Shown: positions 4,953 to 5,696 of the stretch, in pieces | How positions within the stretch are numbered: the stretch's first letter is position 1 | Layout of the letters: the number at the start of each line of letters is the position of its first letter | Origin: a virus | Taxonomy: Duplodnaviria; Heunggongvirae; Uroviricota; Caudoviricetes | DNA: 7,246 nt | Strand: one strand, 5' to 3' | IMG/VR virus record: IMGVR_UViG_2548876964_000020 | The notes under the pieces: generated by a model | What the model was told of the DNA's origin: nothing | Database searches by the model: none | Seen by the model: only the letters and a program-made list of their open reading frames with translations | Made by a program: the position numbers and the translations under genes

Positions 4953-4980
4953 TTGTCGTCAACAGGCAGTGTGCTATCAT
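4953..4980 (+). promoter_or_regulatory. Candidate sigma70 promoter of the toxin-antitoxin operon (extended -10)
   Basis: -35 TTGTCG (4953-4958), 16-bp spacer, TGcTATCAT extended -10 (4972-4980). Direct repeats TGCTATCATC / TGTTCTATCC across and downstream of the -10 could be the antitoxin operator. Confidence 0.45.
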
Positions 4981-5015
4981 CGAATAGTGTTCTATCCTAC
5001 TCCGGGAGGTTTACC

Positions 5016-5273
5016 ATGCGTACAACCCAACAATTCAGCATTACATTAACTAACGAGATGGCTGACATGGTGCGCGCCCGTGTGGCTTCCGGTGCCTATG
5101 CTTCAGAAAGTGAGGTCATTCGTGAAGGGCTTCGCGCACTGAATGAGCGCGATAAAGCAATCGAAGCGTGGTTAACGCATTCAGCCGCCCCATCTCTCGA
5201 TTCTATCCGCGAAAACCCAAACAACGGACGCTCCATTTCACAGGTTCGCGCCGCGATTCGAGCCGGGAAGTAA
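5016..5273 (+). CDS. parD: Type II antitoxin, ParD-like ribbon-helix-helix (COG3609-type)
   Basis: 85 aa from ATG 5016, with GGGAGG SD 6 nt upstream. ...ASGAYASESEVIREGLRALNERDKAIEAWL... matches the ParD/CopG-type antitoxin signature. Stop lies 5 nt before the toxin start. Confidence 0.75.
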   Translation: MRTTQQFSITLTNEMADMVRARVASGAYASESEVIREGLRALNERDKAIEAWLTHSAAPSLDSIRENPNNGRSISQVRAAIRAGK

Positions 5274-5278
5274 TCTGC

Positions 5279-5578
5279 ATGACATATGAAGTCATCATTA
5301 CTCCTGAGGCCGAACAGCAGATAATCAACCTGCACAGATATATAACGGAGAAAGCAGGGAGCGTCATTGCTGACAATTATGCCAATGCACTTCTTGATTA
5401 TCTTGATGGGTTTTCCACATTCCCGCATCGGGGCAATAAACGCGATGATATTCGACAGGGAATGCGGGTAACTCACTTCCGCCACAGAACGATTATTGCT
5501 TTTGCCGTTGATGGCAATAAAGTCTTTATCGCAGGTATTTATCATGGCGGACAAAGTTATGAAACCGATTTCTTATAA
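5279..5578 (+). CDS. parE: Type II toxin, ParE/RelE superfamily
   Basis: 99 aa from ATG 5279: MTYEVIITPEAEQQIINLHRYI...FPHRGNKRDDIRQGMRVTHFRHRTIIAFAVDGNKVFIAGIYHGGQSYETDFL, a ParE-like fold signature. Tightly coupled to the upstream antitoxin. Confidence 0.8.
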   Translation: MTYEVIITPEAEQQIINLHRYITEKAGSVIADNYANALLDYLDGFSTFPHRGNKRDDIRQGMRVTHFRHRTIIAFAVDGNKVFIAGIYHGGQSYETDFL

Positions 5579-5661
5579 ACTTTTCCCCACATAATTCCAG
5601 TATTAGAATAAACCGTCCGCCCCCTCTCTTACTGGCGGATTCGTAGGCTATATAAATCAAA

Positions 5662-5696
5662 GATCCCCGACTCATGTGTGTGTCGGGATCTTTTTT
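5662..5696 (+). terminator. Rho-independent terminator of the TA operon (possibly bidirectional)
   Basis: Stem GATCCCCGAC (5662-5671) / GTCGGGATC (5682-5690) with one bulge, 10-nt loop, then TTTTTT (5691-5696). The minus side is followed by a T-rich TTTGATTTAT. Confidence 0.65.

Follow-up and report, generated by a model that had tools for sequence, protein, structure and literature searches.

Canonical type II ParD-ParE toxin-antitoxin (TA) pairs have been described from plasmid RK2 (ParDE), Caulobacter (ParD1-ParE1, PDB 3KXE), Mesorhizobium (ParD3-ParE3, PDB 5CEG/6X0A), Vibrio (ParD2-ParE2, PDB 7R5A) and Mycobacterium tuberculosis (ParDE1, PDB 8C24). Prophages also carry pairs of the ParE superfamily: ParESO-CopASO of the Shewanella element CP4So provides a precedent for prophage stabilisation or modulation by a ParE-family system (PMC8706911), and PfiT/PfiA of the Pseudomonas phage Pf4 modulates phage production (PMC7264888, PMC13048266). 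[quoted passage not shown] The cassette is 100% identical to copies in E. coli O111 STEC genomes such as O111:H- 11128. The region is very probably a functional, canonical type II ParDE TA moron (a self-sufficient piece of cargo that runs from its own promoter to its own terminator), and it lies within nin of an O111 lambdoid prophage that is defective. The cassette is genuine and intact, purifying selection acts on it, and it was known beforehand.

The antitoxin, ParD, is a ParD-family ribbon-helix-helix (RHH) protein, with the RHH domain at approximately residues 6-51 and a predicted toxin-binding C-terminal half. It matched the hidden Markov models (HMMs) PF03693 (32.1 bits against a cut-off of 21, E=1.5e-7) and TIGR02606 (54.1 bits against 46.2), and its sequence matches in the PDB were ParD antitoxins from Caulobacter (3KXE), Vibrio (7B22) and Mesorhizobium (5CEG/6X0A), together with 7YCV and 8C24. 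The PDB sequence searches with the cassette proteins matched ParD and ParE only. The two genes form an adjacent, co-oriented, antitoxin-first operon with a gap of 5 nt (5274-5278), one promoter upstream and one terminator downstream. Pairwise ratios of nonsynonymous to synonymous substitution rates (dN/dS) were 0.06-0.19 for parD and 0.09-0.19 for parE. A sequence-only reading of the window had proposed a self-contained ParD/ParE unit made of an extended -10 promoter, an RHH antitoxin, a ParE-fold toxin and an intrinsic terminator. All four turned out to be present, either where it had placed them or no more than a few bases away, and the HMMs, the fold and the operon layout agree on the type II assignment.

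The toxin matched PF05016 with 40.0 bits (gathering score 23) over profile positions 1-89 of 89, which places it in the ParE/RelE superfamily, and no specific toxin model of NCBIfam matched it. Since PF05016 spans both RelE and ParE, we built an alignment of 17 ParE homologues from E. coli, Salmonella, Yersinia, Enterobacter and Erwinia plus one from Desulfovibrio, in which 20 columns were invariant. The PDB profile search started from this alignment retrieved ParE toxins only (6X0A, 5CEG, 7YCS and 8C24). The AlphaFold2 model (predicted local distance difference test score of 87.3) exhibited a beta-alpha-alpha-beta-beta-beta topology (E4-7, H9-26, H28-46, E62-67, E71-78 and E81-89), with a long two-helix N-terminal hairpin and a three-stranded sheet but without the C-terminal helix of the RelE type. 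In the Foldseek search against the PDB, ranks 1-23 were all ParE-type toxins with template modelling (TM) scores of 0.72-0.81 (0.74-0.81 for ranks 1-22). These included Mesorhizobium ParE3, PfiT of Pf4, ParE1 and ParE2 of M. tuberculosis, P. aeruginosa ParE, Vibrio ParE2, PrpT, ParE2 of E. coli O157 and Caulobacter ParE1. RelE, YoeB and YafQ ranked below the ParE structures, with TM scores of 0.42-0.65. The profile search, the predicted topology and the Foldseek ranks thus show that the toxin is of the ParE type.

The expression signals of the cassette are listed with the other features in Table 1. The -35 and -10 elements (TGnTATCAT/TATTAT) and the palindrome that overlaps the -35 were conserved among 19 upstream variants from 85 loci with three unrelated left contexts, and the palindrome core, TGTTGTCGTCAAC, was invariant in all of them. 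The palindrome may serve as the ParD operator, for which it is a candidate. The sequence-only reading had let its element begin at 4953, which holds as the promoter -35 and as the TTG of the longest open reading frame (ORF) but not as the start codon of parD, which almost certainly is the ATG given by RefSeq. A divergent promoter-like site was also noted on the minus strand, with its -35 in the palindrome in common with the parDE -35. Its -10-like hexamer (AATATT or TATATT) kept the same 18-nt spacing in the three unrelated left contexts, while the spacers themselves differed. This site would face the 92-aa gene, DUF968, RusA and Q. Alternatively, it may be an UP element that serves parDE.

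At the 3' end, the terminator hairpin was present in both the minimum-energy and the centroid folds, and the region had a z score of -2.8. A pattern scanner missed this terminator because of the bulge and the long loop, and the hairpin was recovered by folding and comparative data. In locus L008 (strain DG342-2), an A-U pair of the stem is replaced by C-G, a compensatory change that supports the hairpin, and the terminator was absent from the O157 locus L006, a Sakai-like prophage without parDE that shares the sequence immediately to the right. Given the A-run upstream of it, the terminator is potentially bidirectional. The second stem-loop in the parE 3' untranslated region was retained in the ArgO145, O103 and DG342-2 variants, and no Rfam family matched it.

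Table 1. Coordinates of the cassette, its signals and neighbouring features in the window (locus names are given where positions refer to other loci)
Feature	Position	Strand	Basis or remark
parD (85 aa)	5016..5273	+	ATG 5016, stop 5271-5273; HMMs, PDB matches, RefSeq WP_001260976.1
parE (99 aa)	5279..5578	+	ATG 5279, stop 5576-5578; PF05016, fold model, RefSeq WP_000220602.1
Sigma-70-type promoter-like site	4953..4980	+	-35 TTGTCG (4953-4958), 16-nt spacer, extended -10 TGcTATCAT (TG 4972-4973, then n, TATCAT 4975-4980); 9/12 matches, TG present
Palindrome CTGTTG-N4-CAACAG, candidate ParD (RHH) operator	4950..4965	n/a	6+6, overlaps -35
Shine-Dalgarno GGGAGG	5004..5009	+	6 nt ahead of parD ATG; read from sequence
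Stem-loop GUCCGCC ... GGCGGAU (7 bp), parE 3' untranslated region	5615..5640	+	Minimum-energy and centroid folds
Intrinsic terminator	5662..5696	+	Bulged G+C-rich hairpin 5662-5690, then T6 5691-5696
Slot between nin accessory genes and 92-aa gene-DUF968 block	~4930-5703; L004 4146-5367; L005 4249-4404; L020/L022 4362-5032		
92-aa phage gene, left flank, outside the cassette	4602..4880	-	ATG at 4880; RefSeq WP_001447497.1; directly upstream of DUF968
27-aa hydrophobic ORF, MSWPEAFSNVGIAMAVALVVYSICRWG, right flank	5704..5787	-	ATG overlaps DUF551 stop (ATGA); also at L002 ~5018-5101 and L006 3501-3584
Divergent promoter-like site	4962-4933	-	TTGACG, 18 nt, AATATT
AgvB anti-GcvB small RNA	267-328	+	Rfam, 96.5 bits, well above gathering score
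STnc100 small RNA	329-521	-	Rfam, 144.5 bits, well above gathering score
tRNA-like sequence	~607-666	-	Rfam tRNA, 37.3 bits

The gene order agreed with the proposal that a plus-strand cassette lies between minus-strand genes in a nin-like region of a lambdoid prophage. On the minus strand, the O111 prophage reads DUF1627', a DNA-binding protein, DUF4406, an Ea22-like protein, two hypotheticals and DUF551, then, past the oppositely oriented parDE, the 92-aa gene, DUF968, RusA, Q, a methyltransferase, a tRNA and the lysis and late genes. Other prophages showed a matching order downstream of the replication genes, which identifies the surroundings of the cassette as nin of a lambdoid phage of the Rac/Qin kind. 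Copies of the insertion sequence IS1203 interrupt the O111 prophage, which is defective and has no integrase, immunity or replication genes.

Comparison with related prophages showed that the cassette is optional and delimited it almost exactly as the sequence-only reading had done. Homology to the hokD-carrying O157 prophage stops at ~4930-4941, homology to ArgO145 spans 4945 to 5787, and L006 has the 5704-5787 part without parDE; from these limits the parDE unit proper extends from ~4930/4945 to 5703. A 45-bp match in O157 genomes was considered as an empty insertion site and rejected, since the matching bases make up the 3' portion of the 27-aa ORF. Of the 5426 complete E. coli genomes searched, 320 carried the cassette, with the 851-bp query present to 80% or more. 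The left flank, which consists of the 92-aa gene and the 5' end of DUF968, occurred in 4524 of them, at 9098 places. The cassette is thus not an ordinary conserved gene pair that every related phage has in this position. All 584 cassette places in E. coli genomes were chromosomal, with zero copies on plasmids. Copies with 94% nucleotide identity are present in phage ArgO145 and in two Stx2a-converting phages.

The slot that holds the cassette also receives other TA genes. In the O157:H7 prophage, hokD lies between DUF551 and the 92-aa gene; in Qin of E. coli K-12, rem-hokD-relE-relB fills the corresponding slot; and in some IMG/VR contigs the slot holds parDE together with a lipoprotein gene and a Hok-like gene. 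The analogy with Qin relBE that had been drawn from the sequence is therefore positional as well as conceptual. Among the IMG/VR loci encoding this ParE, 75 of 79 have the 92-aa gene-DUF968 block directly upstream, and in one other, ArgO145, the cassette lies in the early-left region and adjoins the antirepressor. A Yersinia pair with 70% identity likewise resides in lambdoid prophages, where it lies close to sieB in the early-left region. With its own promoter and terminator, its place between phage genes, its patchy distribution and its second context in ArgO145, the cassette is a phage moron, and parDE is accessory cargo in a recurrent TA landing slot that takes up parDE, relBE, hok or combinations of them.

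The pair is of an ordinary, well-known kind, and the annotation of hundreds of E. coli genomes already includes it. RefSeq names the antitoxin of O111:H- 11128 a 'type II toxin-antitoxin system ParD family antitoxin' and the toxin a 'RelE/ParE family toxin', and the ArgO145 GenBank record labels the genes toxin and antitoxin. In PHROGs, ParD belongs to phrog_6494 ('antitoxin', E=1.3e-56) and ParE to phrog_5232 ('toxin'), both in the category 'moron'. Because the pair already has these names, its value as a discovery is minor. The modest addition made here is that the slot upstream of the 92-aa gene-DUF968-RusA-Q block is a recurrent TA landing site.

The mechanism can be outlined by analogy with the characterised ParDE systems of RK2, Caulobacter (ParDE1), Vibrio (ParDE2) and M. 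tuberculosis (ParDE1). ParD dimers would bind the -35 palindrome through their RHH domains and repress the operon, and the C-terminal half of ParD would wrap around ParE and neutralise it. Host proteases would turn over ParD, and a stop in its synthesis would leave ParE free to poison DNA gyrase, with DNA breaks, SOS induction and growth arrest as the expected outcome. Gyrase is the fairly likely target, judging from the ParE family. In a lysogen, the cassette would be transcribed from its own promoter against phage early transcription, with the terminator as insulation. It would act chiefly as a selfish addiction or stabilisation module that penalises loss of the carrier DNA, and we give about an even chance that addiction is the main selected role. 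Such a role would help explain why the cassette is 100% identical in O111 remnants without integrase, immunity and replication genes. Any protection against other phages would be a secondary, hypothetical benefit.

Several observations weigh against a functional addiction module of this kind. The identity of ParE with the solved ParE toxins is just 14-22%, and not every ParE-fold toxin is a shown gyrase poison, as PaaA2-ParE2 of O157, PrpT and PfiT illustrate. The region contained 2 promoter-like sites where shuffling led to an expectation of 1.6, so the match by itself is not above chance and the credibility of the promoter rests on its position and conservation. Addiction is hard to reconcile with an integrated prophage remnant that does not excise. 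Moreover, among the 49 phage records with parD, 45 have lost parE, so the toxin is dispensable and frequently purged. In the published literature, including that on ParE and Stx prophages, ArgO145 and ParDE phage defence, we found no experimental study of this cassette.

The records without parE are those of Stx2a phages, 45 in number and including PA2, PA8, VT2phi_272 and F765, in which ParD is 87-88% identical. In PA2 (L003 3501-4478), homology breaks past the fifth parE codon and is followed by a lipoprotein-like ORF and a HigA-like helix-turn-helix gene. The promoter of the orphan parD is intact. Residues 1-47 of the orphan ParD, the RHH half, showed dN = 0 at dS = 0.39, and residues 48-85 showed omega = 0.32. 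The Stx2a phages of O157 have repeatedly retained the antitoxin and lost the toxin. The orphan ParD may have an anti-addiction or anti-toxin function, or may be a retained regulator.

An anti-phage role, either abortive infection or superinfection exclusion, would be compatible with addiction, and we regard it as unlikely to be the selected function. In such a scheme, an infecting phage would shut down host transcription or degrade ParD, and the freed ParE would halt replication before the invader matures. Several TA families act in abortive infection, and the predicted independent expression of the cassette, its lysogen-compatible orientation and a slot that gathers TA genes (hokD and relBE) would suit this purpose, as would the position of the Yersinia homologue close to sieB, a superinfection-exclusion gene. 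The orphan ParD of the O157 Stx2a phages, apparently expressed and under purifying selection, is readable as an anti-toxin counter-measure. However, ParD, ParE and four neighbouring proteins gave no match in PADLOC-DB v2 at E<=0.01, the literature on this family yielded no report of ParDE-mediated phage defence, and the co-location with other TA genes equally fits selfish accumulation. A joint scheme of conflict between phages and of prophage control in enterohaemorrhagic E. coli, in which ParE is an effector of abortive infection or exclusion, the orphan ParD of PA2, PA8, VT2phi_272 and F765, still under constraint, is an anti-toxin counter-defence, a divergent promoter with the operator in common couples the TA state to expression of the Q antiterminator block, and SOS triggered by ParE feeds the induction of Stx prophages, appears improbable.

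We also considered that the cassette rewires phage gene control, with occupancy by ParD or ParDE gating downstream genes and ParE-induced SOS feeding the induction of Stx prophages; this we hold to be quite improbable. The divergent site sharing the palindrome would face the 92-aa gene-DUF968-RusA-Q block, or the antirepressor in ArgO145. Its presence and the constant 18-nt spacing of its -10-like hexamer in three unrelated left contexts speak for such control, and the RK2 par locus has divergent, co-regulated promoters. The modulation of Pf4 phage production by PfiT/PfiA points in the same direction (PMC7264888, PMC13048266). Against this, the divergent site matches the consensus at no more than 9/12 positions and has a suboptimal 18-nt spacer, the count of promoter-like sites is not above chance, and the conserved A/T motif may just as well serve parDE as an UP element. 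If the STEC prophage toxin is a true gyrase poison, it could, speculatively, matter for the SOS-dependent induction of Shiga-toxin phages.

A toxin acting as a RelE-like, ribosome-dependent endonuclease of messenger RNA (mRNA) instead of a gyrase poison is very improbable. The shared 'RelE/ParE family' label of PF05016 and RefSeq would allow it, and basic residues are invariant at many positions of the family, among them R51, R55, R59, R63, R68, H66, H69 and H89. The structural ranking, the profile search with its ParE-only matches and the ParE-like helical hairpin without a C-terminal helix all argue otherwise, and the partner is an RHH ParD instead of RelB or YefM. The pair thus has neither the RelE-like fold nor the RelB/YefM-type antitoxin of a RelBE-type mRNA interferase system. 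It is extremely unlikely that the two genes are decaying and functionally inert leftovers of a dead prophage. In favour of this reading, the host prophage is defective, with IS1203 insertions and lost integrase, immunity and replication genes, and parE is deleted in many Stx2a phages. Against it, both ORFs are intact with dN/dS of 0.06-0.19, the regulatory elements have been conserved and the terminator shows a compensatory change, and intact copies of the cassette occur in 320 genomes and in the deposited genome of phage ArgO145.

The ParDE moron is flanked by a small ORF on each side. The ORF to the left had been taken for a possible gene remnant that lacked a proper start (4602-4934) and was truncated by the insertion; it is better read as an intact, conserved gene, with a proper start codon, whose product belongs to phrog_1212 (E=6.7e-34). 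Its length of 279 nt is identical in O111, O157 and K-12 Qin, and it ends 1 nt before the start codon of DUF968. We also considered this ORF as a homologue of K-12 Rem and rejected it, as the K-12 annotation puts Rem one gene further and shows the 92-aa ORF as a separate conserved hypothetical. The hydrophobic ORF to the right is a candidate membrane-peptide gene. It was intact in 77 of 77 copies found, although the upstream genes differ, and in each copy ATGA was preceded by a purine-rich motif resembling a Shine-Dalgarno sequence, which was GGAGG in nearly every case. It occurs with and without parDE, the homology block between ArgO145 and the window ends at its start codon (5787), and the records inspected contained no annotation for it.

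Elsewhere in the window, the AgvB and STnc100 matches lie just downstream of the Q/methyltransferase region. RefSeq places a tRNA-Met at the position in O111 11128 equivalent to the tRNA-like sequence, and ARAGORN reported no tRNA in the window. At the other end, IS1203 (IS3 family) abuts phage sequence at 6645/6646, directly after the gene at 6134-6505, and runs to 7246. Compared with O111:H- 11128, 1.9 kb with the Ea22-like, DUF4406, DNA-binding and DUF1627' genes is missing from the window, and none of the complete genomes in the collection contained the exact 6645/6646 junction in one piece. The insertion sequence had been cited as a sign of a cargo island; this view was rejected, as the IS1203 junction is a separate event with the adjacent 1.9-kb deletion.

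Compared with the known systems, the cassette shares with the canonical ParDE pairs the antitoxin-first bicistron, the RHH ParD, the ParE fold (TM scores of 0.77-0.81), the promoter palindrome and a similar protein size (85 and 99 aa). It differs in its 14-22% identity to the solved ParE toxins and in being borne by lambdoid phages and prophages, whereas the canonical pairs are found on plasmids or the core chromosome. The relBE-hokD genes of K-12 Qin and hokD of O157 occupy the same slot upstream of the 92-aa gene-DUF968 (ydfU)-Q block, and all are accessory TA cargo. Their toxins, however, come from other families (RelE, an mRNase, and Hok, a membrane toxin of type I). The relBE-hokD genes run in the direction of the phage genes, and parDE runs against them and has its own terminator.

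PaaR-PaaA-ParE from E. coli O157:H7 prophages (PDB 5CW7/5CZF) resembles the cassette in having a ParE-fold toxin in a prophage of enterohaemorrhagic E. coli (TM score of ~0.78). The cassette is not such a three-component system, since just two ORFs lie between its promoter and terminator; it is without the third, regulator gene and has an RHH ParD in place of the small disordered PaaA. No sequence match was found between the cassette and the 5CW7/5CZF chains at E<=1. ParESO-CopASO and PfiT/PfiA (PDB 9W3A) are, like the cassette, prophage-encoded pairs of the ParE superfamily, and PfiT is among the top structural matches of the cassette ParE (TM score of 0.79). They differ in antitoxin type and host, and reside on a P4-like element or a filamentous phage instead of a lambdoid one. 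Both are documented to take part in maintaining the prophage or in producing phage, and a role of this kind would, by likeness, be the most plausible one for the O111 cassette.

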